Shown here one piece after another: positions 6,214 through 59,990 of a stretch of 64,000 nt of DNA. How positions within the stretch are numbered: position 1 is the stretch's first letter; every line of letters starts with the position of its first letter. The position numbers and the translations under genes are program-made. The notes below the pieces were generated by a model that saw nothing but the letters and a program-made list of their open reading frames with translations, searched no databases and was not told the origin of the DNA. This DNA is from Myxococcales bacterium (lineage in GTDB: Bacteria > Myxococcota_A > UBA9042 > JABWCM01 > BTVJ01), in the NCBI GenBank assembly GCA_045863395.1, contig BTVJ01000036.1:8856-72855 (forward strand). The letters run 5' to 3'.

Positions 6214-6243
6214 AATCTAGTGGGCGCGCCGCCTCGGTGTCAA
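6214..6243 (-). promoter_or_regulatory. Sigma70-type promoter of rpoZ
   Basis: Minus strand TTGACA-18nt-TAGATT. Confidence 0.55.
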
Positions 6244-6425
6244 TGACGGGCTGGACCGGGTGCTGAAACCGCCGGGCCCAGCCGTTCTGGAGGCCTGCCC
6301 GCCGCGCCCCATCATCTTGATCCCTGTCACTGCGATTGACAGGTCCGCCCGCCCTCCGCTACACCTGCTCGGGTGTCCGTGGCGGGCGACCGCACACCCT
6401 CACAGCCCCGACGGGAGCCAGCGTC

Positions 6426-42900: not shown

Positions 42901-44502
42901 GCCGTCGAGCAGCACGTGCAGCAGGTCGGTCAGCAGGACGCCGGTGGGGACACGGGCGGGCGTCGTCGGCCCTTCCGGCAGCAGGTCGACCAGCTCCTGC
43001 GGGGACAGGTCGAACGAGCCCAAGGCGGCCAGGGCCTCGCCGGCGTCGAGGCGGACGATCTCGCTGCGGAAGAGCTGCGGGGCCGCGGAGGTGGTGAGGC
43101 GGCGCCCGAGGCCGAGCCAGCCCGCACCGGCGCCGTCGTCGGCGAAGGTCACCGTAACCACGTCCTGGGCGGGAAGTGGGTCGGCGCCGGGCGCGTCGGG
43201 GTCGTAGAGAAGCCCACACGAGGCGCCAGGACAGGTCTCGGGAGTGCTCGCGAGGGGGTCTCCGAACTCGCACCCGCTCGCTACCAGCGGGCCGCCACCC
43301 TGGTGCGCGGCGCTGAGCGTGAACGCGCTGCCCAGCTTCAGCTTCGAGAAGGGGCGGTCACGACGCGACGATGACTGAGGCCATGTGCCGGCGAGCTTGG
43401 CGCCGCGATCACATGCGTCGCCCGCGCCGTCGCCGTCTGCGTCCTCCTGGCCCGGGTCGGCGACGGTCGGGCACGTGTCGCAGGGGTCGCCGGCGCCGTC
43501 TCCGTCGAGGTCGGCCTGGCCCGGGTTGGGGTGAACGGGGCAGTTGTCGTCCGCGGTGGGGATGCCGTCGTCGTCCGGGTCGCCCGCCGGATCGGAGGTG
43601 TCCAGCGTGTCCGCGGTGGTGTCGGCAGCATCGCCAGGACCCGCGTCCCCACCGGACGTGTCCACCTGGGTCGTGTCAGGGCCGCCGGAGGCATCGGTGA
43701 CCCCCGCGTCGTCGCTGGCGTCGGGGACGGTGGGGAGCGGCGTGCCCGCAAAGCCGTAGCTGAAGTGGTCGACCAGGGCCACCACATCACCGAGGCCCGC
43801 GGTGGTGTCGAGGGCCTCCCACAGTGGTGTGTCACCGGGTGTCCAGTAGATGCCGACGTTCCCCGTTACGCCGAGCGCGAAGTGGACCTCGGCCGGGACC
43901 GCGAGGTCGAGCCCGTGGGGGGTGATCTCATAGATGGCCGTCGCAGGGTCCACGTCGGCCGGGCCCGCCAGGTCTGCATAGTCCAGCGCGATGGCGGTGG
44001 GCTTGCTCAGCGCTCCAGGCGGGATGACCAGGGTGAGCTCGCCGAGCGAGATGACGCCACCGGCCGGTCCGATCAGCTCGGACGCAGCGTCGGGGCTCGT
44101 GTCGGAGAGGGCATCGAGGAGAGCGCCGCCAGTGTCTGCCTCCTGGCTGTCTGCGATGTCCGCGACGTCGGTGGCGTCGGCGACATCGGTCGTGGCGACG
44201 TCCGAGCTCACCGCGTCGGGGACGGAGACGTCTGGTTCCGGCGTGGCGTCCACCGCGTCGACCAACGCTCCATCCGGCCCAAGCCCGTCGGCGGGGGCCC
44301 CGGTGTCGGGCGTGCGGCCTGGCACGTCGCCGAGCGTGTCATCCGCGCCTCCCCCCCCGGCGCCCCCGTCGGCGGCCGCGTCGAGAGCGGCACTGTCGGC
44401 GGCGCCACCCTGGTCGGGCTCGTCGGGGCACGCCGGCAGCAAGGCGACGAACAGCGTGATGAGAACGGACATGCCACCAGCACGACGCGGGCACACTTCC
44501 AT
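33922..44502 (-). CDS. Giant (~3520 aa) lipid-anchored YD/RHS-repeat protein with ZU5-like, thrombospondin type-3 and DUF6531-like domains
   Basis: Start ATG 44502 (RBS GGAG) or 44472; lipobox VALLPAC; ZU5-like IGPAGGVI..LVIPPGAL..VDHFS; TSP3 DDDGIPTADDNCP..DGDGAGDACD; DUF6531-like EVDLTVKGLGLDMVLGRTYRS..GWT; many YD repeats (YTYDADGRLLTV, YDALDRRV). Confidence 0.85.
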   Translation of the reverse strand: MEVCPRRAGGMSVLITLFVALLPACPDEPDQGGAADSAALDAAADGGAGGGGADDTLGDVPGRTPDTGAPADGLGPDGALVDAVDATPEPDVSVPDAVSSDVATTDVADATDVADIADSQEADTGGALLDALSDTSPDAASELIGPAGGVISLGELTLVIPPGALSKPTAIALDYADLAGPADVDPATAIYEITPHGLDLAVPAEVHFALGVTGNVGIYWTPGDTPLWEALDTTAGLGDVVALVDHFSYGFAGTPLPTVPDASDDAGVTDASGGPDTTQVDTSGGDAGPGDAADTTADTLDTSDPAGDPDDDGIPTADDNCPVHPNPGQADLDGDGAGDPCDTCPTVADPGQEDADGDGAGDACDRGAKLAGTWPQSSSRRDRPFSKLKLGSAFTLSAAHQGGGPLVASGCEFGDPLASTPETCPGASCGLLYDPDAPGADPLPAQDVVTVTFADDGAGAGWLGLGRRLTTSAAPQLFRSEIVRLDAGEALAALGSFDLSPQELVDLLPEGPTTPARVPTGVLLTDLLHVLLDGGTTEQLVAIVRVTYTEGGVNRDHPAVVGLDPTSGAVLWTVALPLTAPLGVGGPGQQGVGFRARLTSDGRLILLHVASGYPKEAKLYQTPIPKDGEAIVATELPAAVHQDPVRDFALDDADRLWVLVATTAPLGATCANFNFTAPRLRVFSPSFTLLRDDLASVMIHDTVVTPSTTFGRTQFDNLAVDRERDGQLHVERYPCGSGTCYRAVVVGEPPTTSQSDCEERATLYGLDPKVVDAGGSAPGGCPAETWTEACCDEQPNAQGGAGLACSPNATLVPCPCKGCKGLLDMTGCGDYVFSAKRYALEVTELRVAGASLVPEGHRVYPLPAATYFGARRQGSIVRGESVLALEGNGRALMGTYQCTSSAPNQVCSRLTLHDLTAEPGKDVVFQVPAFDDPRVILGLFPGAAPGWAATNADHLLSGRLGDVADVVARTAALMELHPVVVPGSQQTPEGPTPRIGHGLFPIGDGRLLSVLDTYDGSAKPRHVIVRLLVPADTLLGPVPAASFEAPMEQIEGCTPTEACPRYPLGTPVKDTDIFGPELLGDPPGGIWDSCVASQTGFVNGSPVLVTNDCDVQKRVAAWNDMMTKSGYTVNELRFAPSGPAKDSSQVKIALTTEGRGVFVECDTASVLVKDVSSTFNGITTVTRFVRCTRWNELYVPGAMGTTGGGAGYPQTVYDLLRQKRHTSCDHLGKPTREKVYKVLGRPLVVEVKALDGSTNPSAAAGDTVQVCAKGSTGKVRYTLTGGKATITSPTGTLDESDDPNVVVVAAGKCAWVTSEEAGTALVAVSALDANGQAGPPTTVAVVFEDPDACAPSEEGFVACTPPHPISPDTSLPAAQSPARAGEGVLLHDRSLELSEVDLTVKGLGLDMVLGRTYRSAARPTGGGVLGGWTLSLDQRVIPVAGEPSPTTLETPESFLDLALHDGSGRVDVFTHPGAAGVVGTAFGGGANGYLVLDPATEGPVAFAPGGGFIADVVTYEAPPGRFETLRAYTVKLLDGESAMEEHPYWSGGAQGSAGERRFYELREPGGTRRIFNCRGQLIRIIDPRFREIELLYEGPIHPITQVRQLTRIVDTRNREWKVAWEDAGSGAQRAPRIAKLTDPFGREIRYGYATLPDGGVVLDRVQRLFASPDAALKIDETTRYTYDADGRLLTVRLPGDVEPALRVEYDGDGHVVRQVIGQDDGQGPGLRRGMVYTFAAPSAATVVVTDGRGTPRTYALAPLGAGGPSVVASLSYPREVWDGKLFPPGRTETTLTWEYTYTAHGQVEEELHPSGRRTVFTYNDRGRALTRQVIPAGDTAPKTWTWEYDPACQLLVREVTPSGRETLWTVGGADPLGKPGEVCRHLRRDRAPVSGDAWTDEYAYVPSGAQRGLLSSAAVLLGGNERRRTEYAYGVDAGGGANPTAFHRGKVPKPALGHLIGETETGAVPPECASVPVAFERAYEVDGRGNTVRTTRKNGGAGIVEERTYDMKDRVVKEVLDPAGIAATVTTTWTPRDLPKAVEHDARDTFSTLSSSFASVFGNVNARIERVEHFYDLAGRRVGTLENPDGGLDRDFEVLGLDGRGNPIRRLTPGGGVDAATFDLIATTLKKGQGALELLSDLPDPDPATLASYGPKVVIRKTTYDTHQNPLFVRESDGFEDAEVESPYASARETDRYLDVEDRLAVLVDPRSTPGALHLIEKVWDGHGRLLEERVYDPASCLGPTTPILKTVLGPYDADDNPAKREIFGDDGAANAGPEPLTGAGCTSRKLASEAYAYDAWGRVAERTQHRFVRQDPSKLTDAPGPTSTTETYGYDDRDLVTLRRRDDGETFETAHTALGEACLARRSAGGVTGGSQITWAFDGAGRVTGHTQTDTGEATVTVTETWQLDTAGRKTKILRGEGQSEQIVYDARGRKRAWIDKRGAIWERRYDRLGQTRLEGPRNDKGARGTRTTWRGRTPTDEERIVGGAFATLPDTGGAVQERTSWAHDAFGRIRRTWPNGREGTAVVEHVRDAAGNLLSETSPTGIVRTTTWDTLGRATRVEATAPWAPGDAPSAYAEAGQSAAKIYRYDALGAMTGAQEREGALAYTTVRWFHDSGGSVLEERHTLHKGDVGNLTAAELEQRRLATVVTRSRVDARGNRTALYWDAADSPELSYWEHDALDRLTRVDLGTSFIDWKYSGDRIASKKATILAAGAIRSVYGYDDIGAPYLVQHFQDSEVLPFYESRRVFLRGDPVITTNRAFQNDLKPVGDVALLPQVLIGKSHVDPALYNPATNLGGLFSYTTFQARPLPSSYLLNDTDGLGLTRRTLTTTYGAATGKAQLLLGLTTYDGARRREHLTVSWDPTLPKKLQELTHVRFTYRDESAASTLCAEQGVEERVCHVRHLMMCRVNESDPLGTKCTLQGDEMNFLGSVVSSPPEATDTTIGFNTVPPKNRSFWAYLHTPSGRLREGVTLSGADIGDRDRHTYDLFDRLITTDDKSIIGKNCNFGTCVASRRRLQYDALDRRVLETYDAPSTLRSERPRRFVYLGDDLIQEYVYKFEGETLDTKGKLLLSGTSRFVRTPDGDMPYFTAAYGVEAVPIQDLDLGFVGFLDRESGQIVPRGTNLLLTNAKPQPYIADTQRVFRWVSPTSELQPFDGTSYTAGLGFEKDFHQDWLGDFWHAQTTFGDVIQENKKSFDLIAIIITLPIFVAAPNSIGSILGQLAGDVISLRREYLQTGSLSWMSVGATLVSAGGSFLGIRGAGQLDAPAPVAALRQASRRAELARNLERRFLRRARALVKQSNPTAYYNLFAGGIEFAQQGLVQKAAMVTANEIAAQIQTVILPPGYARSILKGGLDVADPKVIGFERKVLDVARKYENTYGLILDEYKDAEIDEFFAAAVEEVESWVKGSGLRDPNTVSEAIDAAAGRTQDILRTQRLDTRDLLQTAFVDAQDVVGTAYRPAADLVRTAGGGVTQDLLGTVRIPADSVSTLRLTAADLRSTLRGAADPVRDTLLESTGTLIEAGTRR

Positions 44503-44575
44503 GGTGGACTCCGATGCAGGAGATGATCCGTCCATACGGATCACCCGGCCGACCGGATCGGAAGAAGCGCGTCCG

Positions 44576-45322
44576 CTACCGATCTCCCACGCGACGTGTC
44601 TGGCGCAGGACGTCCGGCGCTGCTCCATTCGACCCTCGCCTCGAGTTGTGGCAGAGTCGCCGCCGCCCGCCGCTGGTCGCCGGCAGGTGGGCGAACTGCC
44701 ACGGATGTGAGGCATGAAGCGATGGGTGTTCGGTTGCGCGATCCTGGTGCTCGCTGGTGGGTGCAAGAAGGAGGCGCCGCCGGCGCCCGCGAAGCCCGCC
44801 ACGGAGGCTGGCCCAGCGAAGGGCGAGGCCAAGGACGCGCCGGTGACGCTGCGCTCGCGCGGTGACAAGGCGCCGGGCGTGTGGGGTGGCCTGCGGCTCC
44901 TCGGGAACGCGAGCCGCAGCGTCCGCGAGGGTGTCGTGATCGAGCACGCCGGGTTGGAGGGGCCCGCGGTGGAGGTCGCGGCCCGCGGTGGCAATGACCG
45001 CCTCCCGCAGCGCGGGCTGCGCCTCCTCCAGGCGAACCAGGTCGACCGGCCACCGCACGATGCCGAGGACCACGCCCAGGGCCCGGAAGAGCGCGTCCTG
45101 CGCGAGCCCCTCGACGGGCAGATCCACGTCGGAGGTCTCCGGAGCCCATGCCCCGCTGACGAGGGAGCCGAAGAGGATCAACCGCCGCACCCCCCAGTCC
45201 CGCCGGAGCATGGCGGCCGCCTCGACGACACGGGCACGAACCGCAGCGGCGGCTCGGTCTCGCTCCGCGCGTTCTCCCGCGAGCCGCGCTCTCCATGATG
45301 TGATCAGTGGCTCGATCTCCAT
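44576..45322 (-). CDS. Minimal nucleotidyltransferase (MNT/MntA-type antitoxin) with aberrant C-terminal read-through; the real domain spans ~44975-45322
   Basis: GVRRLILFGSLVSG..SDVDLPVEGL..PVDLVRLEEA..LREAV (GSx10DxD motif). No HEPN partner follows. Confidence 0.75.
   Translation of the reverse strand: MEIEPLITSWRARLAGERAERDRAAAAVRARVVEAAAMLRRDWGVRRLILFGSLVSGAWAPETSDVDLPVEGLAQDALFRALGVVLGIVRWPVDLVRLEEAQPALREAVIATAGRDLHRGPLQPGVLDHDTLADAAARVPEEPQATPHARRLVTARAQRHRRVLGLALRWASLRGGLRGRRRRLLLAPTSEHQDRATEHPSLHASHPWQFAHLPATSGGRRRLCHNSRRGSNGAAPDVLRQTRRVGDR
44714..44995 (+). pseudogene. Truncated beta-helix-type lipoprotein fragment (ORF reads on to 45298 antisense to the MNT gene)
   Basis: Lipobox LAGGC, then APVTLRS..APGVWGGLRL..S.REGVVIEHAG (beta-helix-type motif). 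After ~44990 the frame is only the antisense shadow of the MNT gene. Confidence 0.5.
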
Positions 45323-45566
45323 GGCCGACGTGTCGACCCGCGGCGCCGGTACGTCAACGGTAGACCCCGTCGGTACCACGACGGTCGCTGCCATGTAGCG
45401 TGGACGCCGAAGACGACCGAGGTTCGTACCAAACAGCGGACACCGCCTCAGCTCGTGCTCGTCGGCGCCGGCCACGAGCACGGGTGCGATGCGACCGAGC
45501 GCCGCGGTGCCTCTCTTGGCGCCGGACGAGACCACAACCAAGGCCGGGAGTCAGGTGCAGGCACCG

Positions 45567-48500
45567 CTACTCCCGCACGACGCTTGCCTGCCGCTCCAGA
45601 CGGATCTGATACCCGTCGAGCTTGTTGTAGAGGGTCCGCCGGTCGATGCCCAGCAGCTCCGCGGTCTTCTTCTTGTTGCCCCCGCAGGCCTCCAAGGTGC
45701 GGATGATCGCCTCCCGCTCCAGCTCCGCGATGGTCATCCCGGGGCTGAAGGGCAGCCCGTCCCCGTCTCTCCCCACCGGCCGCGCGCTCACCCCCGACGC
45801 GGCCGCCACGATCTCGTGGAAGTGGGCGAAGCTCGCCGGCGTGAGCTGCTCCCCCTCCGCGAAGACGCTCGCGTTCTTGATGATGGTCTCCAGCTCCCGC
45901 ACGTTCCCCGGGAAGTCGTACCGCGCGAGCAGCGTCAGTGCGTCGGCGCTGATGCCCTTGATGCGCGTGAGCCCCGAGGCCCGGTTCTCCTTGATGAAGT
46001 GCTGCACCAGGAGCGGGATGTCGTCCTTGCGCTCCCGCAGCGCCGGTAGCTGGATGGGCACGACGTTGATCCGGTAGAAGAGGTCCTCGCGGAACTCCTT
46101 GCGCCGCACCTGCTCCTTCAGGTCCCGGTTCGTGGCCGCCACGATGCGCACGTCCACCTTGGTGGTGCGCGGGCTGCCCACCTTCTGCACCTCCCCCGAC
46201 TGGAGCACCCGCAGCAGCTTCACCTGCATCTCCAGCGGCATCTCACCGATCTCGTCGAGGAACAGGGTCCCCTTGTGGGCCACCTCGAAGAAGCCCCGCT
46301 TGTCGGCGCTCGCCCCGGTGAACGCCCCGCGAACGTGCCCGAACAGCTCGCTCTCGAAGAGGCTCGCGGGGATGCTCCCGCAGTTGACCGCCACGAACTC
46401 GTGGCTCCGCCGCGCGCCGTTGTAGTGGATGGCCCGCGCCACGAGCTCCTTCCCCGTGCCGCTCTCCCCACCGATCAACACCGGGATGTCGTTCTCCAAG
46501 AGCCGGTCGATGATGTAGAACACCTCGCGCAGCTTGGCGCTCTGACCGACCAGCGCCTCGTAGCGGTGCCGGCTCTCGAGCTGCTGCTGCTGCCGCGCCA
46601 TGCGGGTCTGGGTCTCCGCCAGCTCCAGGCTCGTCCTCTGCAGCTTCTCCTCGAGCTGCTTGTTCAGGTCCTCTACGCGCCGCTGGCTCTCTGCCAGGGC
46701 GTTCTTCTGCCGCAGGTTCTCCTCGAACAGCCGCGCGTTGCCGATGGCGATGGCCGCCTGGTCCGCGAAGGCCTCCATGAACGCCAGATCGACCTCCCCG
46801 AAGGCGCTCGCCTGGAAGCGGTTGTCGATGTAGAGCACGCCGATGGAGCGCCCCATGAGCCGCAGCGGCAGGCACAGGATCGACCGCAGCCGCAGGTTGT
46901 GGATGGACAGGTACTCCCGGTACCGCTCGTCCTCCATGGCGTCGACCGTGATGATGGGCTCCCCCTCCTCCATGACCCGCTCGGCGATGGACGTGCTGAT
47001 CTTGAACCGCCGGTTCTTGATGTTCTCCCGATCGATGTTGCGCGCCACCCGCACGGTGAGGCCATCGGGGCCGTCCTCCTCGCTGCCGAGCAGCAGGAAC
47101 CCCCGCTCGGCCCCCGTCAGCACGATGGCGGAGTCCATGATGAACTCCAACAGCCGCGTGACGTCGTGCTCCGTGTTCAGCCGCTTGTTGATCTCCAGGA
47201 GCTTCGCCATGTCGGCGCCGAACACGTCCGTGCGCTGCGCCCGCGCCGCGTGCCCTTCCAGCGCCTCGATCCAGCGCAGCTCGGCCATGGCCTCCCGCCG
47301 GTCGCGCACCCCCATGAAGGACTCGGCCAGCTTGGGTGGCAGCGGGCGCACCAGCCCCCGCAGGATCTCCAGCGCTGCGAGCCCGTGCTCGATGGCCTTG
47401 CGGGTCTCGCCCAGGTCGCGCAGCACACGCGCCGCCACGAAGCGCAGCGGCCACAGCACCTCGGGGCTGTCCAGCCCCTCTGCCGACCGCAGCGCGTCCT
47501 CGACCAGCTCACCGGCCCGATCCGGGGCGCCGTCGGCACGCACCCGCTCGGCCTCCGCCCGCAGCGTCAGCGCCCGGACCCGCAGATCCCGCGCACCGTG
47601 CCGCAGCGCCGCCTCCAGCGCCCGCCCCGCCCAAGCCGCCACGTCGTCGTGGGCCCCCCGATCCAGCGCGAGCTGCCCCAGCTCGAGCTGCACTTCCGTG
47701 ATCTCGTTGGCGCTCCCCAGCTCCTCGAACAGCGCGAGGGCCGCGCGCAGGTGCGCCTCCGGGTCGCCGCAGGCCCCCTCCAGCCGCTCGATCTCCCCCA
47801 ACAGCGACAGGTTGTACCCCTCGATGAACCGGTTCTTCTCGCTCCGGCACAAGGCCAGCGACCGCTCCACCAGCGCCCGCGCGCGGTCGAGCTGCCCCAG
47901 GTAGCGGTACACGTTCCCCAGGTTGTTGCAGTTCTTGAGCACCCCTCCACGATCCCCGAGCACCTCTGACAGCCGCAGCGACCGCTCGTAGTGCTCGATG
48001 GCCCGCTGGACATCGCCCCGCTCCTGGTAGACGACGCCCATGTTCATCAGCAGGGACCACTGGCGCGCCCGGTCTCCCGCACGCTCGGCCATCTCCAGCG
48101 CCCCCTGGTACTCCGCGAGGGCCTCGTCGTAGCGGTCCTTGCGGTGCTGGACGATGCCGAGGCACGTCCGAAGCGCCGCCACGTCCCCGGGGCGCCCGAG
48201 CGCCTCGTAGCGGGCGAGCGCCTCGCCCAGGGTCCCCTCCGCGTCCTCCAGGCGCCCCTGGTAGAAGGCCGCCAGGCCGAGCACGTGGGAGAGGCGCGCC
48301 CGCACCACTGGCTGCTGATCACCCTCGCCCAGCTCGCGGCGCGCCTCCTCCCCCTCCTCGATGGCGCGGGCGTAGTCGCCCCCATACAGCAGCGCCTGTG
48401 CGAGCCAGCTCCTCGCCTCGGCGCTGTCCAGCGGCCTGCGCCCGGCCAGGGTCGCGACCGCATCCCCCAGCCGGTCAGTGGCCAGGGCGAACGCACCGCG

Positions 48501-50789
48501 CCGAAGCTCCAGCACCCCGGCTCGCCTCAGCGCGTCGGCCCGCAGATCAGGGTCGGCCCCCACCTCCGCCAGCAGGCGCACGTAGGCCGCCTCGGCGCGG
48601 TCGAAGGCCGCGAGCTGGACAGCGGCATCCCCCTGCAGCACGAGCAGCCGCCGCCGCAGCGCTGCCCCTTGCACCCGCGTGTCGTCGATGGAGCCGATCA
48701 ACCTGTCCACGAGCGCAAACGCGGACCGAGCCGCCAGCCCCTCCGCCGTGTCTACGGCCACGGCCACCGCCTGATCCAGCCCTACCGGACCATCAGGCGC
48801 GCCGGCCGCCCGCAGCAGGTGAATCGCCCGCGCCACCCGGGGCTCGTCGCCGCTCTCCTGCTCCAGGAGCCCCGCCGCGACGACGTGCAGCCTCCACCGC
48901 TCGTCGGCGTCGACGAAGCCCAGCGCCGCCTCCCTCACGACGGGCGACGCCACGGTGCACGCGATGCGGTCGCCGCGCACGTCGCGGGACAGGAGGCCCA
49001 GCGACTCCAGCCGGTCGAGCGCGACCCGAACGCCGCCGAGGTCCTCCCCAAGCAAGGCCCCAAGGAGCGGAGGCGTGGCCGGAACCTCCAGCAGCGAGAT
49101 GGCCACCAGGGCCGACCGCGTCTTGGCGTCCAGTCGCTCGACCTTCCCCCGCAGCATGTCGTCCACCGTGCGCGGGAGCGCGGGCCGCGCGGGCATCTCG
49201 GGGGCAGCCGCCGCCTGCGTCGCCCCCACCGTGAGGTGACCGGCCTCGAAGAGGCCCCGCGTGGCCTCGACGAGCAGCAGCGGGTTGCCTCCGCTCAGCG
49301 CGTGCAGGACCACCGCCAGCCCATGAGACACGCGCCTGCCGGGAAACAGGCGCTCCAGCCACTGCCGCACGTGGTCGACGGCGAAGGGAGACAGCACGAT
49401 GTCGGCCCCCGCGTCGAGGGCGTCGGCGACCACGACCAGCAGCCGCGCCTCGGGGTCCACGCCGCCCTCCATCGCCCTCCCGATGGCCGCCATGACCTCC
49501 CGAGTCTCGCCGTCGCCGAGCTCCAGGCCATCGACGAGCAGCGTGGTCGGCGCCCGCCTCCCGAGTGACAGCAACAGCCGCGCGAGGGCGTCCACCCGGT
49601 TCGCGCGCGCGCGGACCGGGTCCTCGGCGACCAGGGCGGAGGCCTCGGATGGGGCCCACTCCGGCAGGACCCCGGCCAGCGCCGCGCGCTGGCCCTCGGA
49701 CAGGGCCTCCACCTCGGGCGCATCCCCGCCCGCGCCCAGTGCCCCGAGCAGCAGCCGCCGGACGGGCGCCAGCGTCGCCTCCCCGGGCGCGCACGTCGTC
49801 GCGATCACCCGCTTGCCCTCCCCCAGCAGGGAGTCTGCCAGCACACGCAGCAGCCTGGAGCGCCCCGAGCCCGGCGCGCCCGCGACGCGCACGAGCTGCG
49901 GAGGTGCCTCGAGCGCGGCAGCGGCCCGCCGGAGCGCCTCACCCTCTCCGCCGACGTCCACCCGGTCCACGCGGCTCACCCGCGCGGAGACGATCTCGAC
50001 CGTCAGGTGCGGTACGGGCCGCCCGAGCAGATCGGAGAGCTGGTCGAGGACCTCGGCGGCCGACGCGGGCCGCTCGGCGGCCGTCGGAGAGAGGAGGCGC
50101 CGCAGCAGCGGGGCGACCTTGCCCTTCGCCCCCACGGCCGCAGGCTGAGGCGGCGGCGCGTCGGGCAGGGTGCGCGGGTAGCGCGGGTACGGGTGCTTCC
50201 CGAAGAAGAGCTGCCACCCCAGTACGCCCAGACTGAACAGGTCGGACCGGGGCGAGACTGGGGCCCCGGCGAGGGTCTCGGGCGCCAGCCAGGGGAGCGC
50301 CCCGCTCACTCCGCCCCCAGCCGTCGGAGAGGACAGACCGAAGTCGAGCACCTTCACGCGGGGCGCCTCGCCGGTGGCCACCAGGATCACGTTGGCCGGG
50401 TTCAGGTCCCCGTGCACTCGCCCCTGCTCGTGGATGTGCAGCAGCGTCCGGGCAAGCTGAACCAGCACCTCGACCGCCTGCTCCTCGCCGACCTCGCCCG
50501 TGTCCACCCACTCGCCGAGCTGAGGCCCGTCGCACAGCTCCATGGTGAACGCCGGCCTCCCGCCCTCCGGGTCCTCGTGCAGGTCGTACACCTCGGGCAG
50601 GTGAGGGTGGGCCAGGCTCCGCAACAGCACCAGCTCGGCGCGGAAGAGGCCCGCCAGCTCGGGGCTCTTGACCCGCTTGAGGGCCAGGCTGCGGCCGGGG
50701 AAGAATCGATCCTCAACGAGGAAGACCTCCCCCATTCCCCCCTCTCCGATCTTGTGAAGGATCTCATACCGGTGCAGGATGGTCGTCAT
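45567..50789 (-). CDS. Ser/Thr kinase-STAND NTPase-TPR-GAF-sigma54 activator (AAA+)-Fis HTH fusion, 1740 aa
   Basis: [49 protein letters not shown] array; GAF ([16 protein letters not shown]); [44 protein letters not shown]. Start ATG 50789. Confidence 0.92.
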
Positions 50790-50844
50790 GGTCCCCTCGC
50801 CGCGTTTTGCTGACAATCGCGGCGGATCGTAGAGGAACTGCACA

Positions 50845-50864
50845 CGATTGCAAGTCTCCAATCG
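50845..50864. promoter_or_regulatory. Candidate enhancer (UAS) inverted repeat
   Basis: CGATTG-8nt-CAATCG, about 80-95 bp upstream of the sigma54 -24 element. Confidence 0.4.
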
Positions 50865-50939
50865 CAAGCGGGCGGACGGGCGCCGGTTGCCCTCCACAAA
50901 GATCAATGATATCCAGCACCGATCCGCCCCCCGGCCCGT

Positions 50940-50955
50940 TGGCACATGGGCTGCA
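50940..50955 (+). promoter_or_regulatory. Sigma54 (-24/-12) promoter
   Basis: TGGCAC-ATGGG-CTGCA with exact GG-N10-GC spacing, pointing at ORF 51012 and divergent from a sigma54 activator. Confidence 0.7.
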
Positions 50956-51011
50956 CTGCTGGCGTGGAGCGTGACACCCGTAGCATCGGCCAACCCGTTG
51001 GCGAGGCGTGA

Positions 51012-51461
51012 ATGAAGCGAGCCAGGCACATCGCAGCCGCCCTGTTCATCGCGTTGGCCCTCCCGTGCTGCGACGGTGGCGGGGAGGACGTGTGCATCAG
51101 CCCCGTGCCCACCCCGAACGCCTGCCCCAACGGCCAGGGCCCGGCGGCCGCCGACATGGACGCGGCGGAGTGGAGCGGCGGCGAGCCGACCCATGCGTCG
51201 GACACCGGCGGCGGAGGGGGCGGAGGCTTCGCTGGCAGGAGCGACGCGGGCTCCCTGGACCCGAACGCGGGCGCCGTGGACGGGGACCTCGACGCTGAGA
51301 AGGATGCCTCGACCGGGGACGCCGAGGCGACGTGCGGCGAAGACGCCGATGGCGGCTGCCCTGACACGGCGGATCCAGATTCCGGCGACGCAGACAACCA
51401 GGAGCCCGACGGCGACATCGCGTCGCCAGACCTCGACCTGCTGGGGGAGGACGCGCCATGA
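51012..51461 (+). CDS. Small acidic low-complexity lipoprotein with an ISPVPTPN motif (1)
   Basis: RBS GAGG; signal MKRARHIAAALFIALALPCC; CISPVPTPNACP; Asp/Gly-rich tail. Confidence 0.75.
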   Translation: MKRARHIAAALFIALALPCCDGGGEDVCISPVPTPNACPNGQGPAAADMDAAEWSGGEPTHASDTGGGGGGGFAGRSDAGSLDPNAGAVDGDLDAEKDASTGDAEATCGEDADGGCPDTADPDSGDADNQEPDGDIASPDLDLLGEDAP

Positions 51462-51988
51462 GCCACCGACTTTCAGGCCCCCTGAGCCTCGCCTTGCTGC
51501 TGGCCGCCTGCAACATCAGCCCGGTCCCGACGCCCAACAACACGGGCGAGGGCGCCAATGGCGGCGGTGGCTTCGGGAGCGCAGACGCGGGCTGGGAGGA
51601 CCCCGGCGGCGAGGGCAAGGGACAGGACACGGCGGGTGGAGGCTGGCTCGACTCGGGCGGCTCGGGGGACTGGGGCTCCGGTGGCAGCGACGCCGCCGGC
51701 GGCAGCGCCGACGCGATGGGGCCAGGCACGAACGACGCATCGTGGGACACGATGGGCGGTGGCACCGGCGACGCGGCGCACGAGGACGTGTCGGGCCCCA
51801 TCGACTGCGGCCCGTGGGAGTGGGACGCGGAAGATGGCGCCGACGTGCAGTGTTGGCCCGACGACATCGGAGCAGGGGTCGACGCAGACCCGTGGCCCGA
51901 CGACGCAGACCCGTGGCCCGACGACGCAGACCCGTGGCCCGACGACGCAGATCCCTGGGCCGACATCTTCGGAGACGACGACATCTGA
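51458..51988 (+). CDS. Small acidic low-complexity lipoprotein with an ISPVPTPN motif (2) and DADPWPD repeats
   Basis: ATGA overlap with the upstream gene; RBS GGAGG; lipobox LLAAC followed by NISPVPTPN; Asp/Gly/Trp-rich tail. Confidence 0.78.
   Translation: MSHRLSGPLSLALLLAACNISPVPTPNNTGEGANGGGGFGSADAGWEDPGGEGKGQDTAGGGWLDSGGSGDWGSGGSDAAGGSADAMGPGTNDASWDTMGGGTGDAAHEDVSGPIDCGPWEWDAEDGADVQCWPDDIGAGVDADPWPDDADPWPDDADPWPDDADPWADIFGDDDI
51881..51964 (+). repeat. 21-bp coding tandem repeat (DADPWPD x3 plus one variant)
   Basis: GACGCAGACCCGTGGCCCGAC exact at 51881, 51902 and 51923; variant at 51944. Confidence 0.9.
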
Positions 51989-52032
51989 CGCGCCCCGCCC
52001 TCTGGCGCCACCCCTCCCCCTCGCCACGCTGA

Positions 52033-53316
52033 GTGACTTTGCGGACACTCCAGGTCATCGCCCGGGTCGCCCAGGTCCTCTTCTGGTCCTTCGTCGCCTT
52101 CTGCCGCTTCGCCGTCGGAGCCCCGGCGGCCCTTCTGCCGTCGGGGGCGCGCCGCCGCAGGGCAGGCGCCCTCGCGGCCAACGTCTTTCGCCGCTGGCTC
52201 CAGGATCTGGGCGCGACCTTCATCAAGGTCGGCCAGATCCTCAGCACGCGCCCCGACATCCTCCCCGAGTACGCCATCGCGGAGCTGGCGCTGCTCCAGG
52301 ACCAGGTGCCTCCGTTCGCGTTCCCCATCGTCGAGCGCACCATCGAGGCGGAGCTAGGCCAGCCCGTCTCCCACCTCTTCCGCCACCTGGACCCGGTGCC
52401 CATCGCGTCGGCCTCGGTCGCCCAGGTCCACGCTGGAGAGCTCCCGACCGGGGAGCGCGTGGCGGTCAAGGTGCGCCGCCCGGACATCGTGCGCACGGCC
52501 GAGCTCGACGAGGTGATCATGAAGCTCCTGGCGCGCGCGGCCTCCCTCCTCCCAACGGTCCACTTCCTCTCACCGGTGGAGTCCGTGAGCGAGTTCTGCG
52601 CCGCCATCCGCGACCAGCTCGACCTGACCAAGGAGGCGGCCAACAACCGCCGCTTCCGCGCCAACTTCGCCAGCTCCCCGGAGGTGCGCTTCCCGGCGCT
52701 CCACGAGGCGCTGTGCTCCCCTTCGGTGCTCACCATGGAGCTGATCGACGGCGTCAAGGAGGGCAGCCTGTCCACCATCGACGCGGATCCGAAGCGCCTC
52801 GCGCGCATCGGGAGCAGAGCCGTCCTGCAGATGATCTTCCGCCACGGCTTCGTGCACGCGGACCTGCACCCGGGGAACATCCTCTTCGAGCCGGGAAACC
52901 GCGTGACCTTCATCGACCTGGGGATGGTCGGCCGCATCGACCCTGAGCGGCGCCGGGCCCTGGCCACCCTCTTCTTCGCCCTCGCGGCCAACGACGGGGC
53001 CACGGTCGCCCGCATCATGTTCGAGCAGAGCCCCCACAAGGTCGTGACCGACTACCAGGCCTACGAGGCGGACGTCACGGGCTTCATCGCCACGTTCTAC
53101 GCAAAGCGCCTCGGCGACGTGGAGGTCAGCCTCCTCATCGGGCACGTCTTCCGCATCATCCGGCGACACCGCATCCGCGCCGAGGCCGCGTTCACCATCA
53201 TCAACATCGCCTTCATCGTGATGGAGGGGCTGGGCAAGAAGCTCGACCCGACCATGGACCTCTTCACGGAGACGATGCCGTTCCTGGCGGAGCTCCTCGC
53301 CGAGCGCCCGTCTTGA
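52033..53316 (+). CDS. ABC1/UbiB (AarF) family atypical kinase
   Basis: LGATFIKVGQILSTRPD (KxGQ), PIASASVAQVH, VAVKVRRP, HADLHPGNI and IDLGM. Confidence 0.93.
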   Translation: MTLRTLQVIARVAQVLFWSFVAFCRFAVGAPAALLPSGARRRRAGALAANVFRRWLQDLGATFIKVGQILSTRPDILPEYAIAELALLQDQVPPFAFPIVERTIEAELGQPVSHLFRHLDPVPIASASVAQVHAGELPTGERVAVKVRRPDIVRTAELDEVIMKLLARAASLLPTVHFLSPVESVSEFCAAIRDQLDLTKEAANNRRFRANFASSPEVRFPALHEALCSPSVLTMELIDGVKEGSLSTIDADPKRLARIGSRAVLQMIFRHGFVHADLHPGNILFEPGNRVTFIDLGMVGRIDPERRRALATLFFALAANDGATVARIMFEQSPHKVVTDYQAYEADVTGFIATFYAKRLGDVEVSLLIGHVFRIIRRHRIRAEAAFTIINIAFIVMEGLGKKLDPTMDLFTETMPFLAELLAERPS

Positions 53317-53342
53317 CACTCCACAGCACCGGCGCGTACTTT
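53313..53342 (+). promoter_or_regulatory. Sigma70-type promoter of the PhoH-family gene
   Basis: TTGACA-18nt-TACTTT. Confidence 0.55.
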
Positions 53343-53399
53343 CGCTCGCCGGCCCGCGACCCAGGCGAGCGGCCTATCGTGCAAGGAGGCCCCGGTCAC

Positions 53400-54728
53400 A
53401 TGAAGAAGAACTTCATCCTCGACACAAACGTGCTGCTCCACGACGTGCGGGCCATCTTCGCCTTCGAGGACAACAACGTCTGCATCCCCATCTACGTGAT
53501 CGAGGAGCTGGACACCTTCAAGAAGGACATCAGCGAGCTCGGCCGGAACGCCCGCGAGGTGAGCCGCCAGCTCGACCGCTTCCGCGAGCAGGGCCGCCTC
53601 TCCGACGGCGTGACCCTCCCGAGCGGCGGCCGCCTCCAGGTGCTCTTCACCCAGGAGCGCCTCCCCGAGGCCTTCGCGGTCGCCCACGCGGCCGACAACG
53701 CCATCCTGGCCGTCGCGCTGGACCTGGCGAAGCGAGAGCCCCACTGCCCCACGATCTTCGTCACCAAGGACACGAACCTCCGCATCCGCGCCGACGCCCT
53801 GGGCATCCACGCCGAGGACTACGACCGGGAGCGCTACGACATCAGCGAGCTGTACCCGGGCGCCACGGAGGTCTCCATCTCTGGCGCCCAGATGCAGGCG
53901 CTGTTCGAGAAGGGCTCCATCCCGCTGGACGGGCTCAGCCCGAGCGACGGAGAGCCCTTCTACGCCAACGAGTACATCCTGCTCCGCAACCTGGATCGCC
54001 CGGGCCACACGTCCCTGGCCCGCGTCAACGGCGACGTCAACGAGGTGGGCCCCATCACGCCGTTCCGCGACACGGTGTGGGGCATCCGCCCCCGCAACAA
54101 GGAGCAGCACTACACCCTCGACGCACTGCTGCGGGACGACATCAAGATGGTGACCCTGGTCGGCAAGGCGGGCACGGGCAAGACCCTGCTGGCAGTGGCT
54201 GCGGGCCTCTACAAGGTCACCGACGAGAGCTCCTTCAGCAAGGTCCTGGTCAGCCGCCCCATCTTCCCGCTGGGGCGCGACATCGGCTACCTCCCCGGCG
54301 ACATCGAGCAGAAGCTCACGCCCTGGATGCAGCCGATCCACGACAACGTGGAGTTCCTGATGGGGCTGTCCAAGAGCGACAAGAAGCGGGGCCGCAGCTA
54401 CCACGAGCTCATGGACCAGGACCTGCTGGCCATCGAGCCGCTCACCTACATCCGCGGCAGGTCCATCCCCAACCAGTTCATGATCGTGGACGAGGCCCAG
54501 AACCTGACGCCCCACGAGGTGAAGACGGTGCTGACCCGCGTCGGCGACAACACGAAGATCGTGTTCACCGGCGACCCCTACCAGATCGACAACCCGTATG
54601 TGGACAGCGTGAACAACGGGCTGACCTACCTCGCCCAGAAGTTCAAGAGCGAGAAGATCGCCGCCCACGTGTCCCTGTTCAAGGGAGAGCGCTCGGAGCT
54701 GGCCGAGCTGGCCGCAAACCTGCTCTGA
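53400..54728 (+). CDS. PIN-PhoH fusion (PhoH2/YlaK-like) protein
   Basis: ILDTNVLLHD..VIEELD (PIN), GKAGTGKT, GYLPGDIEQK, YIRGRS, VDEAQN and TGDPYQID. Start ATG 53400 with RBS AAGGAGG. Confidence 0.93.
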   Translation: MKKNFILDTNVLLHDVRAIFAFEDNNVCIPIYVIEELDTFKKDISELGRNAREVSRQLDRFREQGRLSDGVTLPSGGRLQVLFTQERLPEAFAVAHAADNAILAVALDLAKREPHCPTIFVTKDTNLRIRADALGIHAEDYDRERYDISELYPGATEVSISGAQMQALFEKGSIPLDGLSPSDGEPFYANEYILLRNLDRPGHTSLARVNGDVNEVGPITPFRDTVWGIRPRNKEQHYTLDALLRDDIKMVTLVGKAGTGKTLLAVAAGLYKVTDESSFSKVLVSRPIFPLGRDIGYLPGDIEQKLTPWMQPIHDNVEFLMGLSKSDKKRGRSYHELMDQDLLAIEPLTYIRGRSIPNQFMIVDEAQNLTPHEVKTVLTRVGDNTKIVFTGDPYQIDNPYVDSVNNGLTYLAQKFKSEKIAAHVSLFKGERSELAELAANLL

Positions 54729-54833: not shown

Positions 54834-57626
54834 CTACCTCCGCAGGAACGTCGGCACCGGCGCAAAGTCCTCCGCCGCCAGCTTCTTCCGCAGGTTCAGC
54901 GTCAGGCGCGCGGGATTGTAGACCATCAGGTTGTGGGTGGTCGGCGTCGTGAGGATGAACTGCGCCCGCGTCACGTTCAGGAAGCGGGTGATGTCGTCGA
55001 TGCGCTCCACCGACAGGTGGGCGAAGGGCTCGTCGAGGATGAAGAACCCGCCGGGCTCCTCATCGTCCTGCATGGTGAGCGCCATCAGCAGGATGAGCGA
55101 CGCGATGACGCTCTGCCCTCCCGAGAGCTTGGGGTCGTTGATGGGCACGGGGGACTTGCCGTCGAAGCCGATGCGGATGTCGATGCCCGCCTTCTTGAGC
55201 ACCTCGTCGTCGTCGACGAGCTTCGGCACGTGCACCTCGACCTCGACCCGCGCCCGCTCCGCCAGCCCCATGATGTTACGGCGGTAGCGCTGCACCGTCT
55301 GCTCCATCACGCGGATGTAGCTCTTGCGGGCCCGCCGCAGCTCCATCTCGCCGCGCCGGTGCTCGGTCTGCCGCTCGGTCATCACGCGCTGCTGGCCGTC
55401 CAGGTCCGCCCGCGCCTTCTCGAAGACCTCTACGATCTGCGGGTCCTGGCACCCCTCGAAGCGGTCGATGGCCTCCCGCACCACCCGCAGCCGCGCCCCG
55501 AGCTGCTCCTCGGTCTCGGTCAGCGCCAGGGCGGCCTCGGTGCGCAAGAGCTCCGGCAGGGCCGCCTCGGCGAGCTTCACCTCCATGTCGACCCGCGCCC
55601 GCTTCGCCCGCCGGTGGGCCAGGTCCGCCCGCGCCTTCTCACTCTCTTGCGCGACCACCCGCGCCCTGTAGTCCAGCAGCCCGAGGTGCTTCTCCTTCTC
55701 CACAAGGGTGCCGTTGATGCCGTCGCTCTCGGTCATCGCGTCCATGAGGCGCACGCTGAGCTGCCGCTTCGTCTCGGCCAGCTCCGCCGACCGCGCCTCC
55801 AGGGCCGGGATCTCCGCCGCCCGTTCTGCCAATCGGGCCCGGGCCCGCTCCCGGTCGAGCGCCAGGTCGATGCGCGTGAGGGCCCGCCGCACCTCGCCCG
55901 CCTCGTGCTCCTTGCGGTTGATGGCCCCCTCCAGCTCTCCCTCTCGGCGCTGAATCTCGTCGAGGCGGGCCTTGCGCGCGCCCCCGCCGCAGTAAAGCTC
56001 CTGCACGGCGATGTGGACACCGCCGCGGGGGTCCTGCTTGTAGCCGTCCGGCGTGATGCTCACGGCGTCGCGCCCCAGCCTCATGCCGTCCGCCACCGAC
56101 TCGACCAGCATCACGCGGTCGAGCTGGCTCAGGATCCACGACGGCACGCGGTCGTCGCCCAACACCACCTGCGACAAGGCGCTGCGGGGCTTGGCGGCGG
56201 CGGCCTTCACCCTCTCGAAGGTGCTCACGTAGCACGGGTACTTGAGCTCGCGGGCCAGCTCCCGGGCCGGCAGCGACGCCTCGGGCGGAACGATCCAGGT
56301 GAAGCGGTCCCGCCCGAGCACGCTCTCTACCGCGAGCTGCCACTTGGGATCGACGATCTCCAGCACGTCCAGCACCAGGACCGCCTCGATGCGCGCCTGG
56401 GCGAGCCGCTCCCCCATGCGCCGCACCCAGGGCGGCGGCTCCCGGCGCGACGACTCGCTCAGGGTGCGCCGCTCGGCGCGCAGCTCAGCCTGCTCCCCTC
56501 GCAAGCGCTGGAGCTCCGCCCCGGCGCCGGCCTCGGCCACCAGCAGCCGCCGCCGCTCTGCCTCCAGCGCAACGGGATCCACCGGCTCCGCGTCGGCGTC
56601 CGCCCCCAGCTTCTCCCGCAGCTCCTCGATCTCCCGCAGCCGCACCCGCGCGGTGCGGTACTCCCCGTCCACCCCCTCCTTCTCGCGCAGGATCGCCTGC
56701 TGCTCCGCCCGCCGGTCCCCCACGCCGCTCTGCAGGCGCTCAATCTCTTGATGCGTACGCTCCCGGTCCGCGACGATCCCCGCCGCGTCCGCCTCCCTCG
56801 CCGCCATCGCGGCCAGCGCCTCGTCGATCTCCGCGTCCAAGAGCTCCCGCTGCTCGCAGAGGGACTTGTAGCGCACCGCGGGCAGCCGCACCTCCCGGAT
56901 CTGCCGCTCCTCGTCCACCAAATCCCGGAACCGCTCGTAGCTCTTCGCGTCCCGCTCCAGGAGCTGCACGTGCCGCGCGACCTCGTAGGCCTTCTCCTCC
57001 TGCTCCCGCAGCTCCCGCGCGCTGAGCAGGTAGCTCTCCCGCGCCGTCGCGTAGTTGTCCATCACCTGCTTGTCGCCCTGCATCTCCAGGACGTACTCCA
57101 GGAGCTGCTGGGGAGTCCGCCGGCAGAGCTTGTTGGTCTCCCCCTGCTCCAGCGCCAGGATCTTGAGCAGCGTCCGCGGCAGGTGAGCCTTCTCCAGGTC
57201 CGCGGCGTACTCCTCGGGAGACAGCAGGTTCGGCATGTCCCGCAGCGACTGGATCGGGGCGTCCCCGGGCAGGATCGCGTAGCGCCGGTTCCAGTGCCCG
57301 CTCTTGCGGGTCAGCACGCAGGCGAGGGTCGCCTCCTCTTGGAAGATCCCCCGGTGGGTGAAGGGCCGCTTCCCGAAGCCGCGCCGCAGCGGGTTCGACA
57401 CCACCCCCTTCACCACGGCGATGCCGGTCTCGCCGCGCATGTACTCGTTGACCTTGCGCGAGGTCGATAGCGTCCGGGCGCCGAGCAGGATGCGCATGGA
57501 GTCGAGGAAGGTCGTCTTCCCGGACCCGTTCGGCCCCGCGATCATCACGACCTGCTCGTCCACCGGGACCCGGATATGGTCCCAGAGGTCCCAGTTCATC
57601 AGCTCGATGGCCTTGAAGGAGAACAC
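54834..57626 (-). CDS. SMC-family ATPase (MksB/JetC-like), 930 aa
   Basis: Walker A GPNGSGKTT, Q-loop LEQGE, coiled coils, hinge-like segment (VDPKWQLAVESVLGRDRFTWIV..SITPDG), signature LSGGQ and Walker B/D-loop FILDEPFAHL. Confidence 0.88.
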   Translation of the reverse strand: MFSFKAIELMNWDLWDHIRVPVDEQVVMIAGPNGSGKTTFLDSMRILLGARTLSTSRKVNEYMRGETGIAVVKGVVSNPLRRGFGKRPFTHRGIFQEEATLACVLTRKSGHWNRRYAILPGDAPIQSLRDMPNLLSPEEYAADLEKAHLPRTLLKILALEQGETNKLCRRTPQQLLEYVLEMQGDKQVMDNYATARESYLLSARELREQEEKAYEVARHVQLLERDAKSYERFRDLVDEERQIREVRLPAVRYKSLCEQRELLDAEIDEALAAMAAREADAAGIVADRERTHQEIERLQSGVGDRRAEQQAILREKEGVDGEYRTARVRLREIEELREKLGADADAEPVDPVALEAERRRLLVAEAGAGAELQRLRGEQAELRAERRTLSESSRREPPPWVRRMGERLAQARIEAVLVLDVLEIVDPKWQLAVESVLGRDRFTWIVPPEASLPARELARELKYPCYVSTFERVKAAAAKPRSALSQVVLGDDRVPSWILSQLDRVMLVESVADGMRLGRDAVSITPDGYKQDPRGGVHIAVQELYCGGGARKARLDEIQRREGELEGAINRKEHEAGEVRRALTRIDLALDRERARARLAERAAEIPALEARSAELAETKRQLSVRLMDAMTESDGINGTLVEKEKHLGLLDYRARVVAQESEKARADLAHRRAKRARVDMEVKLAEAALPELLRTEAALALTETEEQLGARLRVVREAIDRFEGCQDPQIVEVFEKARADLDGQQRVMTERQTEHRRGEMELRRARKSYIRVMEQTVQRYRRNIMGLAERARVEVEVHVPKLVDDDEVLKKAGIDIRIGFDGKSPVPINDPKLSGGQSVIASLILLMALTMQDDEEPGGFFILDEPFAHLSVERIDDITRFLNVTRAQFILTTPTTHNLMVYNPARLTLNLRKKLAAEDFAPVPTFLRR

Positions 57627-57629
57627 GGC

Positions 57630-58592
57630 CTAGTCCCCCCCGTCCTTGGCGCCCTCGGTGTCCTCCAGAGCGCCCTCGCTCTCAGTGGCCTCCAGTGCGC
57701 CCTCCGGGTCCCCCATCACGCCCTCGTCGCCCACGGCGCCCCCGTCCTCGGCCGGACCCGCGGCCTCGGGCGCGTCCAGCTCCAGGTCGTCGAGCCAGGT
57801 CGGCACGTCCTCCTCAGCCTCCGCGGCGCCAAACCCCTCGGGGAAGCCGACATCGTCCTCGCTCGCCGCCACGCGCCGCAGCGGCAGCTCCGGCTGCCCC
57901 CGCGTCGCCTCCGCCCGGTCCTCGAAGGCGCTCCAGAGCACGCTGTCCTTGAGCTTGATCGCCATCCGCGTCCCGTCGACCAGCAGATCGAGCAGCGGCC
58001 CCTCGCCCACGTTGCCCGAGCGGTCTTCCGTCACGAAGCCCATGTTGCGGAGCTGCCCCAGGTACCGCGCGAAGTTCACCTTCCCGAACTTGCTGCCGAA
58101 CTCGGCGTAGAGCGCGTCCCGGTGCACGTGCAGGCGCACCGGCTTGCGCGGCTTGGACTCGGGGAACAGGTCGGCGTTGGGCTCGTCGGGGTCGAAGCGC
58201 CGCTCCTGCGCCACGCGCTTCGGCAGCACCAGCTTGGCCCACAAGATGACGAGCAGCGCGACCGCCCCCTTGTGGAGCCGCGCGTTCGTCGCCCAGTCGA
58301 AGGACACGTCCCCCTCGATGGCCGGCACGAGGCGCACGGCGAAGTGCTCGCTGTAGACGTTGTCGACCAGCTCCATGCCCACGGCGAGCAGGCGCGCCCG
58401 CACCCGGTCCCGCAGGTCGTCGTCGATGACCAGGTCCTTGCACGCGGTCTTGCGCAGGCTCGTGAAGATGAGCAGGTGGGAGCAGATCTCGCGCGCCCGG
58501 GCGTCCAGCTCCTCATCCGGGGCGAAGTCGCCCGGGGTCGGCGGGTTCCGGTCCTCCTCCTCGGGGGTCCATGCGTCGCGCTCTTCGGCCAT
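57630..58592 (-). CDS. Putative KITE subunit (MksE/JetB-like) with an acidic tail
   Basis: Directly upstream of the SMC (3-nt gap). VRARLLAVGMELV, ALLVILWAKLVLP and LGQLRNMGFV..VGEGPLLDL are consistent with tandem winged helices. The assignment relies on position and fold pattern. Confidence 0.6.
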   Translation of the reverse strand: MAEERDAWTPEEEDRNPPTPGDFAPDEELDARAREICSHLLIFTSLRKTACKDLVIDDDLRDRVRARLLAVGMELVDNVYSEHFAVRLVPAIEGDVSFDWATNARLHKGAVALLVILWAKLVLPKRVAQERRFDPDEPNADLFPESKPRKPVRLHVHRDALYAEFGSKFGKVNFARYLGQLRNMGFVTEDRSGNVGEGPLLDLLVDGTRMAIKLKDSVLWSAFEDRAEATRGQPELPLRRVAASEDDVGFPEGFGAAEAEEDVPTWLDDLELDAPEAAGPAEDGGAVGDEGVMGDPEGALEATESEGALEDTEGAKDGGD

Positions 58593-58629
58593 CCGCTCCC
58601 TCTCGACGCCCCCACATGGGGCGGACCGC

Positions 58630-58641
58630 GGCTTGTAGCAC
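58630..58641 (-). promoter_or_regulatory. Extended -10-like motif GTGCTACAAGCC (copy 1)
   Basis: Identical 12-mer also at 59979-59990. Lies in the 57-bp gap before the KITE-like gene. Confidence 0.45.
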
Positions 58642-58649
58642 AGGCCCGG

Positions 58650-59972: not shown

Positions 59973-59978
59973 GGGCCG

Positions 59979-59990
59979 GGCTTGTAGCAC
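59979..59990 (-). promoter_or_regulatory. Extended -10-like motif GTGCTACAAGCC (copy 2), likely a leaderless start
   Basis: TACAAG ends 8 nt before ATG 59972, with no Shine-Dalgarno in between. Confidence 0.45.

Follow-up and report, generated by a model that had tools for sequence, protein, structure and literature searches.

A giant kinase-STAND-sigma54 activator paired with lipoproteins that carry a lineage-specific proline tag in Myxococcota

Activator, promoter and lipoproteins at the locus

In the window, a stretch of 64,000 nt of contig BTVJ01000036.1 from the genome of a Myxococcales bacterium (GCA_045863395.1, hereafter G000; coordinates are 1-based), there is a gene for a giant transcriptional activator, which lies back to back with two genes for acidic lipoproteins, A and B, across a divergent gap of 222 nt (Table 1). 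The gap holds a sigma54-type -24/-12 promoter facing the lipoproteins, and both lipoproteins carry the same proline-rich motif, ISPVPTPN, hereafter the tag.

The activator is composed of a kinase (Pkinase, residues 8-202), a STAND NTPase (AAA_16, 286-442), an array of TPRs, a GAF domain (1207-1349), a coiled coil, a sigma54 AAA+ domain (Sigma54_activat, 1413-1580) and a Fis-type helix-turn-helix (HTH) motif (HTH_8, 1687-1725); these Pfam matches bear out the domain order that the original prediction had read from the letters alone. Specifically, the AAA+ domain, with an intact GAFTGA, matches PF00158 at an E value of 4e-71, the C-terminal HTH matches PF02954 at 8e-16, rpoN is encoded in the genome (TIGR02395 above cut-off) and, by sequence match, a -24/-12 target lies nearby, all of which are features of an enhancer-binding protein. 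Of the features of a STAND protein, a P-loop domain, a Walker B motif, a GxP motif, and helical and winged-helix domains followed by a repeat sensor are present: AAA_16 scores above cut-off, D420 and G501 are nearly invariant, and a confident model has the same order of elements. Residues 1-760 and 735-1400 were modelled with AlphaFold, confidently in both cases (pLDDT 88.8 and 90.5). By the features tested, the activator belongs both to the sigma54 enhancer-binding proteins and to the STAND proteins, and activation of the local promoter by it is predicted. Its NifA equivalog score is 380 bits (cut-off 529 bits), and it falls under every NCBIfam equivalog cut-off.

The kinase segment has the VAIK Lys, helix-C Glu, HxD..N, DFG and APE of Hanks-type Ser/Thr kinases, with the catalytic residues intact. 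In 25 aligned rows, from which the conservation of activator residues was read, K38, H126, D128, N133, D149 and A169-P170 are invariant and E52 is nearly so. A fold search with the model of residues 1-760 returned kinase matches only, with a PknB-like fold. As originally pointed out, the catalytic loop (HGDLN) is non-RD and the Walker A motif (GAPGSGRS) has no Lys. The loop is non-RD in all 25 aligned relatives, and the Walker A residue, Arg in the G000 activator, is Arg in 15 rows, Lys in nine and His in one; on this alignment both are family traits, not marks of the G000 copy, and a special meaning of the Arg was rejected. The activator has no clear transmembrane segment, in agreement with the first reading (peak 19-residue hydropathy 1.63).

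The divergent, correctly spaced -24/-12 promoter that had been predicted is confirmed; it sits 56 nt ahead of lipoprotein A, with the start of the activator 150 nt away on the other side. Most activator-adjacent lipoprotein copies of relatives have a -24/-12-like site, and in many of these promoters two 17-bp inverted-repeat sites, recognized by eye, lie ~20 bp apart upstream. The candidate operator of G000 occupies the same position as these tandem sites. The palindrome within it, with 6-bp arms and an 8-nt spacer, had also been predicted; it is present, and it is weak by itself, being one of 14 inverted pairs found at the same threshold within 241 nt. No close match to this upstream element was found at any other of the 73 strict -24/-12 sites in the genome, the next best having six mismatches. 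RNA-library contigs cover the locus, one of which (1104 nt) spans 50806-51909; strand, start and level are not readable from these contigs, which may be DNA. No terminator-like site was found within 50600-53600.

The two lipoprotein genes overlap by 4 nt, and an ABC1 kinase gene follows 44 nt further on; the arrangement first described, with a motif shared by both lipoproteins behind the promoter, holds on coordinates and sequence. The lipoprotein-type signals of A and B were judged by eye, and the lipobox of A is atypical (L-P-C-C). Neither protein has a Pfam or NCBIfam match, and the tag is the sole feature that they share. The tail of lipoprotein B ends in four 7-residue repeats (51880-51964).

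Table 1. Coordinates of the features discussed
Feature	Coordinates	Strand	Description
Activator, 1740 aa	45567..50789	-	kinase - STAND NTPase - ~11 TPRs of 40 aa - GAF - coiled coil - sigma54 AAA+ (GAFTGA) - Fis-type HTH
Candidate operator	50828..50864		17-bp site, then 20-bp palindrome (50845-50864); by eye from aligned promoters
Sigma54 -24/-12 promoter facing lipoproteins	50940..50955	+	sequence match; similar sites in relatives; rpoN present
Lipoprotein A, 149 aa	51012..51461	+	atypical lipobox; ISPVPTPN at residues 29-36 (51096-51119); acidic low-complexity tail, 25% D+E
Lipoprotein B, 176 aa	51458..51988	+	lipobox LAAC18; ISPVPTPN at residues 20-27 (51515-51538); acidic tail
ABC1/UbiB-family atypical kinase	52033..53316	+	Pfam ABC1 match
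Third tag copy, purple acid phosphatase frame	G000:C57 (L001) 4125-6758	-	ISPVPTPN at residue 551, 12 residues before Cys of MYXO-CTERM-like tail

Conservation of the gene pair and spread of the tag

The sample of relatives comprises 60 genomes. Long activators of the class with enough upstream DNA were assessed at 40 loci, and 12 more, at contig ends, were left out. A divergent lipoprotein with an x-P-x-P-x-P motif is present at 23 of the 40 loci, usually with a -24/-12 site, which upholds the original expectation that orthologues of the activator diverge from motif lipoproteins (three of the 23 were counted from pattern and profile coordinates alone). In the paired lipoproteins, the motif lies within ~10 residues of the lipobox Cys, and in an alignment of 66 lipoprotein N-termini, chosen for having the motif, the sole invariant columns are the Cys and three Pro. 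Tandem lipoproteins like those of G000 recur in G014 and in one further record. Among the 23 pairs, the lipoprotein start looks broken in G019 and the activator frame looks broken in G019 and G054. The pair is also found in four cultured Sorangium strains (variant NPIPEPP) and in other Polyangia, at times downstream on the same strand. Furthermore, it was recovered in two genomes of other classes, G147 and G110, by a profile that did not contain them; for four long activators of other classes and in G066, G139 and G177, no motif lipoprotein was found nearby. The activator and the tag-bearing lipoproteins are a conserved gene pair, and the regulator-plus-tag system is real, conserved and apparently undescribed. 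A full-text literature search, with most subscription papers and all supplements outside its coverage, found neither the architecture nor the tag described, although the former may be listed in older surveys of myxobacterial genomes.

Other arrangements were seen beside some activators. At L181, three tandem ATPIPIP lipoproteins lie directly downstream of the activator, and at L004, L005 and L009 (family f10, second activator clade), the activator is followed by a gene for a secreted TPR-like protein and lacks an evident tag partner. Two activator clades coexist in several f10 genomes.

The tag extends beyond the locus. ISPVPTPN occurs three times in G000, against 0.00016 occurrences expected by composition among ~3.0 million predicted residues, the third copy being in an unlinked purple acid phosphatase frame. 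The three copies differ at 4-5 of 24 nt, every difference is silent, and Ser is drawn from two codon boxes; silent-only differences suggest selection on the peptide. The tagged proteins carry unrelated signal peptides, and the tag lies either 1-16 residues after the lipobox or ahead of the Cys of the MYXO-CTERM-like tail. In this tail, the tripartite pattern of Cys motif, transmembrane helix and basic tail is visible, but the frame continues into a lipoprotein-like hydrolase, and the scores lie below the cut-offs of the MYXO-CTERM models (TIGR03901, 15.5 versus 20 bits; TIGR03382, 15.3 versus 15.85 bits). The whole 877-aa frame runs from the phosphatase through the tag and the MYXO-CTERM-like segment to a second lipoprotein-like signal with an alpha/beta hydrolase, and is possibly two genes fused by stop loss.

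In relatives, 2-7 copies of the lineage's own variant, such as NPTPHP, VNPVPTP, ESNPQPSP or IAPLPSP, occur on unrelated lipoproteins. In particular, [VI]NPVPTP has 26 matches in 11 of 11 genomes of family f7 (2-5 copies each) and none in the other 50 genomes, and 23 of the 26 were translated and found behind a lipobox-like Cys. NPTPHP matches 30 times in 11 genomes that belong to five families, with 25 of these matches in lipoproteins, and nine times in the other 50 genomes, with seven matches in the control; none of eight matches fetched from outside its 11 genomes is a lipoprotein. In family f11, the activators have no adjacent partner, yet a profile lacking these sequences found ESNPQP-type lipoproteins at 18 of 30 loci examined, confined to seven of the ten f11 genomes with up to seven per genome, and one copy in each of four genomes has a -24/-12 site. 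Within single genomes, the copies agree: SSPTPHP in 3/3 (G054), AAPTPHP in 2/2 (G025), IISPVPSP in 2/2 (G001) and VEPLPSP in 2/2 (G023). The tagged proteins are otherwise unrelated. Some consist of acidic tails, others have Ig-like, FG-GAP, DUF4886 or purple acid phosphatase domains by Pfam (with matches for 6 of the 16 scanned), and sequences resembling hydrolases, vWA domains and zinc proteases were recognized by eye.

Families f5 (three genomes) and f8 (11 genomes) have no long activator (best E values 1e-78 to 1e-89). They also have no tag-profile match better than 8e-4, and the two of their matches that were inspected differ in type from the tag; the profile, having been made from other families, is a weaker test for f5 and f8. 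On these comparisons, the motif is a lineage-specific, genome-wide tag, each variant of which is restricted to one activator clade. The original prediction of a self-contained module is not supported, because the tag lies on unlinked genes. In Sorangium and three other Polyangia, searched with one pattern, the adjacent copy stands alone in two of five genomes, one match is out of frame, and multi-copy tagging was not seen. A first, degenerate S/N-P-V-P pattern was discarded as noisy, with lipoproteins only at the window's own locus and one f7 locus among 28 loci translated and with f8 matches that are not lipoprotein tags.

Alternatively, the motif could be a neutral proline linker copied along with lipoprotein N-termini, with the lipoproteins as ordinary targets of the activator. 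Proline-rich linkers are indeed common after lipoboxes here, and 27 of 562 lipobox-like G000 proteins have an early PxPxP. We consider this account very improbable: it has to contend with exact identity of the peptide despite silent divergence and unrelated signal peptides, with one copy near a C-terminal anchor, and with variants confined to clades.

A strict -24/-12 site is missing at 33 of 38 unlinked copies. The strict pattern overlooked the activator-adjacent copy in G031, and a missing strict site is therefore not a firm absence. In G036 and G041, a short copy displaced from the activator keeps its promoter and operator-like site. In the NPTPHP clade (L032, L035-L039, L110), the best lipoprotein-facing -24/-12 site lies inside the activator's own kinase coding sequence at seven of nine loci read, in a variable kinase loop ~200-400 nt upstream of the motif and upstream of operator-like sites. 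This site is weaker in G012 and G040 and likewise present in G058 and G035, and a transcript from it would cross the activator start antisense.

A candidate reader of the tag and alternative readings

The TPR array of the activator is of a peptide-binding type, in line with the original suggestion. Its core (residues 875-980) is the most conserved part of the array, with N916 and N956 invariant, and its best natural matches by sequence and by fold are LGN/Pins domains solved with extended peptides; the AfsR TPR matches at an E value of 4e-13. The motif variants map onto activator clades. Co-folding of an alignment of the TPR-GAF region (735-1400) with lipoprotein B residues 18-50 scored 0.02 and 0.01 against a mark of 0.32, which is no answer and is used neither way.

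We propose, with belief and doubt in about equal measure, that the TPR array binds the lineage tag and that the activator then induces tag-only lipoproteins, amplifying the signal. The activator would act as a cytoplasmic receptor whose TPR groove accommodates the proline tag, and tagged envelope proteins would be clipped or delivered such that the tag reaches the cytoplasm by some route. Four class-5 peptide-binding proteins are encoded in the genome, and in Myxococcus, outer membrane exchange can carry lipoproteins as far as a neighbour's cytoplasm (PMC8546572). Binding of the tag would release STAND autoinhibition and drive oligomerization of the AAA+ domain; ligand gating is proposed by analogy with the STAND activators MalT and AfsR, whose sensor domains keep them inactive (PMC10936776). 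The receptor, once activated, would switch on the sigma54 promoter of lipoproteins that consist of little beyond tag and acidic tail and that would amplify or relay the signal, while the kinase, gathered by the oligomer, may provide a second output. Unlinked tagged enzymes, mostly lacking the promoter, would be standing signal sources that report envelope damage, turnover or kin contact.

Several observations weigh against this proposal. At 17 of the 40 loci, there is no adjacent motif lipoprotein (among them G043:C674, where the activator faces a large lipoprotein with a looser motif), and six genomes with a long activator (G006, G009, G010, G016, G034 and G044) have no profile match better than 0.01. 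Variants are mixed in two genomes, with three NPTPHP copies and one SSPTPHP copy in G035, and with ISPQPEPP beside the activator and LNPQPEPP elsewhere in G147, and generic proline linkers after lipoboxes score near weak tags. Covariation between the motif and TPR residues is no better than with columns outside the TPR, the top mutual-information columns including GAF and linker positions; it is indistinguishable from shared ancestry, and kinship therefore explains the match of variants to clades equally well. SbmA/BacA was not found, and the locus lacks a linked gene for a dedicated protease or importer. Finally, the link between tag and activator is drawn from comparison, not experiment, and a loop whose sole conserved target is its own signal has no obvious output.

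One alternative places the reader of the tag outside the cytoplasm. An unlinked envelope protein, such as a shedding protease, a sorting or surface-display factor or a modifying enzyme, could recognize the tag, with the activator transcribing one tagged gene and sensing something else. The activator is devoid of a membrane segment, whereas all tagged proteins are exported, the tag is always near a Cys that is or may be lipidated (MYXO-CTERM proteins are predicted to be lipidated and cleaved; PMC11980579), and a co-evolving enzyme would equally yield one variant per genome. An envelope reader leaves unexplained why the activator's neighbour shrinks to tag and acidic tail in many lineages while its body varies freely, and why the tag is absent from f5 and f8, which have no long activator. 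Moreover, in G000 just three of several hundred exported proteins are tagged, and some variants are poor in Ser/Thr (none in NPIPEPP, one in ATPIPIP). On balance, we regard this alternative as somewhat unlikely.

Another alternative does away with the import step. The activator might read the tag on unexported cytoplasmic precursors, such that the pair monitors export or lipoprotein maturation as an alarm or a negative-feedback checkpoint, which suits a receptor located in the cytoplasm and the position of the tag, directly behind the signal peptide in nearly all copies. The phosphatase tag of G000, far from its signal peptide, does not fit, no export or quality-control gene was found as a conserved neighbour, and lineage-specific variants would be unexpected for purely internal monitoring; we judge this explanation distinctly improbable.

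Extending the proposal of a cytoplasmic tag receptor, we suggest tentatively, as a possibility that we would not yet favour, that Myxococcota carry a lineage-specific proline 'password' on several envelope proteins, and that the clipped or passed peptide reaches an NLR-like kinase-STAND-TPR receptor, which fires its kinase and induces password-only lipoproteins, giving a self-amplifying cell-to-cell alarm or kin signal. Such a system would let double-membraned bacteria sense damage or kin through a peptide circuit. Cytoplasmic peptide signalling would then exist in social predators that are Gram-negative, with its signal embedded in unrelated enzymes of the envelope and not in a dedicated propeptide. 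Myxobacteria commonly have giant kinase-STAND-sigma54 regulators, for which the literature search returned no ligand. Comparison supplies a candidate ligand of 7-8 residues, one target promoter and naturally occurring cognate and non-cognate pairs, and the gene pair is present in cultured Sorangium strains, which makes the question directly testable.

Neighbouring genes and known systems

In the original prediction, the module included the ABC1 kinase, and a single four-gene cassette, with the kinase modifying or transducing the lipoproteins, would account for the short gap behind lipoprotein B and for the lack of a terminator-like site. Because of this lack, the kinase gene, which has a GTG start without a clear ribosome site, may be read through from the sigma54 promoter. 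However, the 23 ABC1 matches in 20 relatives all lie away from activator loci, the closest orthologues have different neighbours, and 13 relative loci with an adjacent lipoprotein run on into other genes. In G001, a possible exception, the ABC1 and activator genes are both near contig ends with no overlap seen. Judged from gene order, the ABC1 kinase is a bystander and not a conserved part of the system; the self-contained four-gene module was rejected, and the cassette has hardly any chance of being right. The kinase scores 347.5 bits against the UbiB equivalog TIGR01982 (cut-off 487.55 bits).

Other genes of the window are noted in passing. A PIN-PhoH (PhoH2-like) gene (53400-54728, +) starts 83 nt after the ABC1 kinase gene, followed by three genes in MksFEB/JetABC order (54834-60158, -); the SMC protein among their products, of 930 aa, has matches to JetC models (E 6e-26), and the other two have no PADLOC model match. 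On the far side of the activator, a short frame (~44990-45323, -) resembles a minimal nucleotidyltransferase by eye, with no Pfam or PADLOC match for the stretches submitted, and an RNA-library contig of a related strain has small indels relative to the window in this region. An open frame of ~3600 aa (33922-44994, -) has Rhs and thrombospondin type 3 repeats.

The system resembles the GAF-type enhancer-binding proteins NifA, NorR and FhlA (PF00158 and PF02954), with GAF, GAFTGA AAA+ and HTH domains in the same order, an adjacent divergent -24/-12 promoter and upstream inverted repeats, except that the G000 activator has ~1190 extra N-terminal residues comprising kinase, STAND and TPR. In coupling an NTPase and a TPR sensor to transcription, the activator is reminiscent of MalT and of AfsR, which has a kinase input (AfsK; PMC10936776). 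In contrast to MalT and AfsR, the activator has a sigma54 AAA+ domain as its output and its kinase within the same polypeptide, the Walker A Lys is often Arg, and the candidate ligand is a lipoprotein-borne peptide. LGN/Pins (GPSM2), the top natural sequence and fold match, has 40-residue TPRs with an Asn-lined groove like those of the activator; it is a eukaryotic adaptor, and the likeness indicates a type of peptide-binding fold, not the ligand.

The RRNPP systems (Rap-Phr, PlcR-PapR, NprR-NprX and AimR-AimP) likewise place the gene of a cytoplasmic TPR receptor next to that of an exported precursor and use a lineage-specific short peptide, and in G000 the two genes adjoin across the divergent gap. 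Unlike in those systems, the host is double-membraned, and the peptide sits at the N-terminus of the mature protein and is grafted on unlinked enzymes too. The published definition (PMC10075063) has receptors of 250-500 aa and Sec/SPI-secreted propeptides of 10-100 aa, as compared with an activator of 1740 aa and precursors of 149 and 176 aa with lipoprotein-type signals. If the proposed model holds, the G000 system would by analogy work like RRNPP signalling, though outside its size limits.

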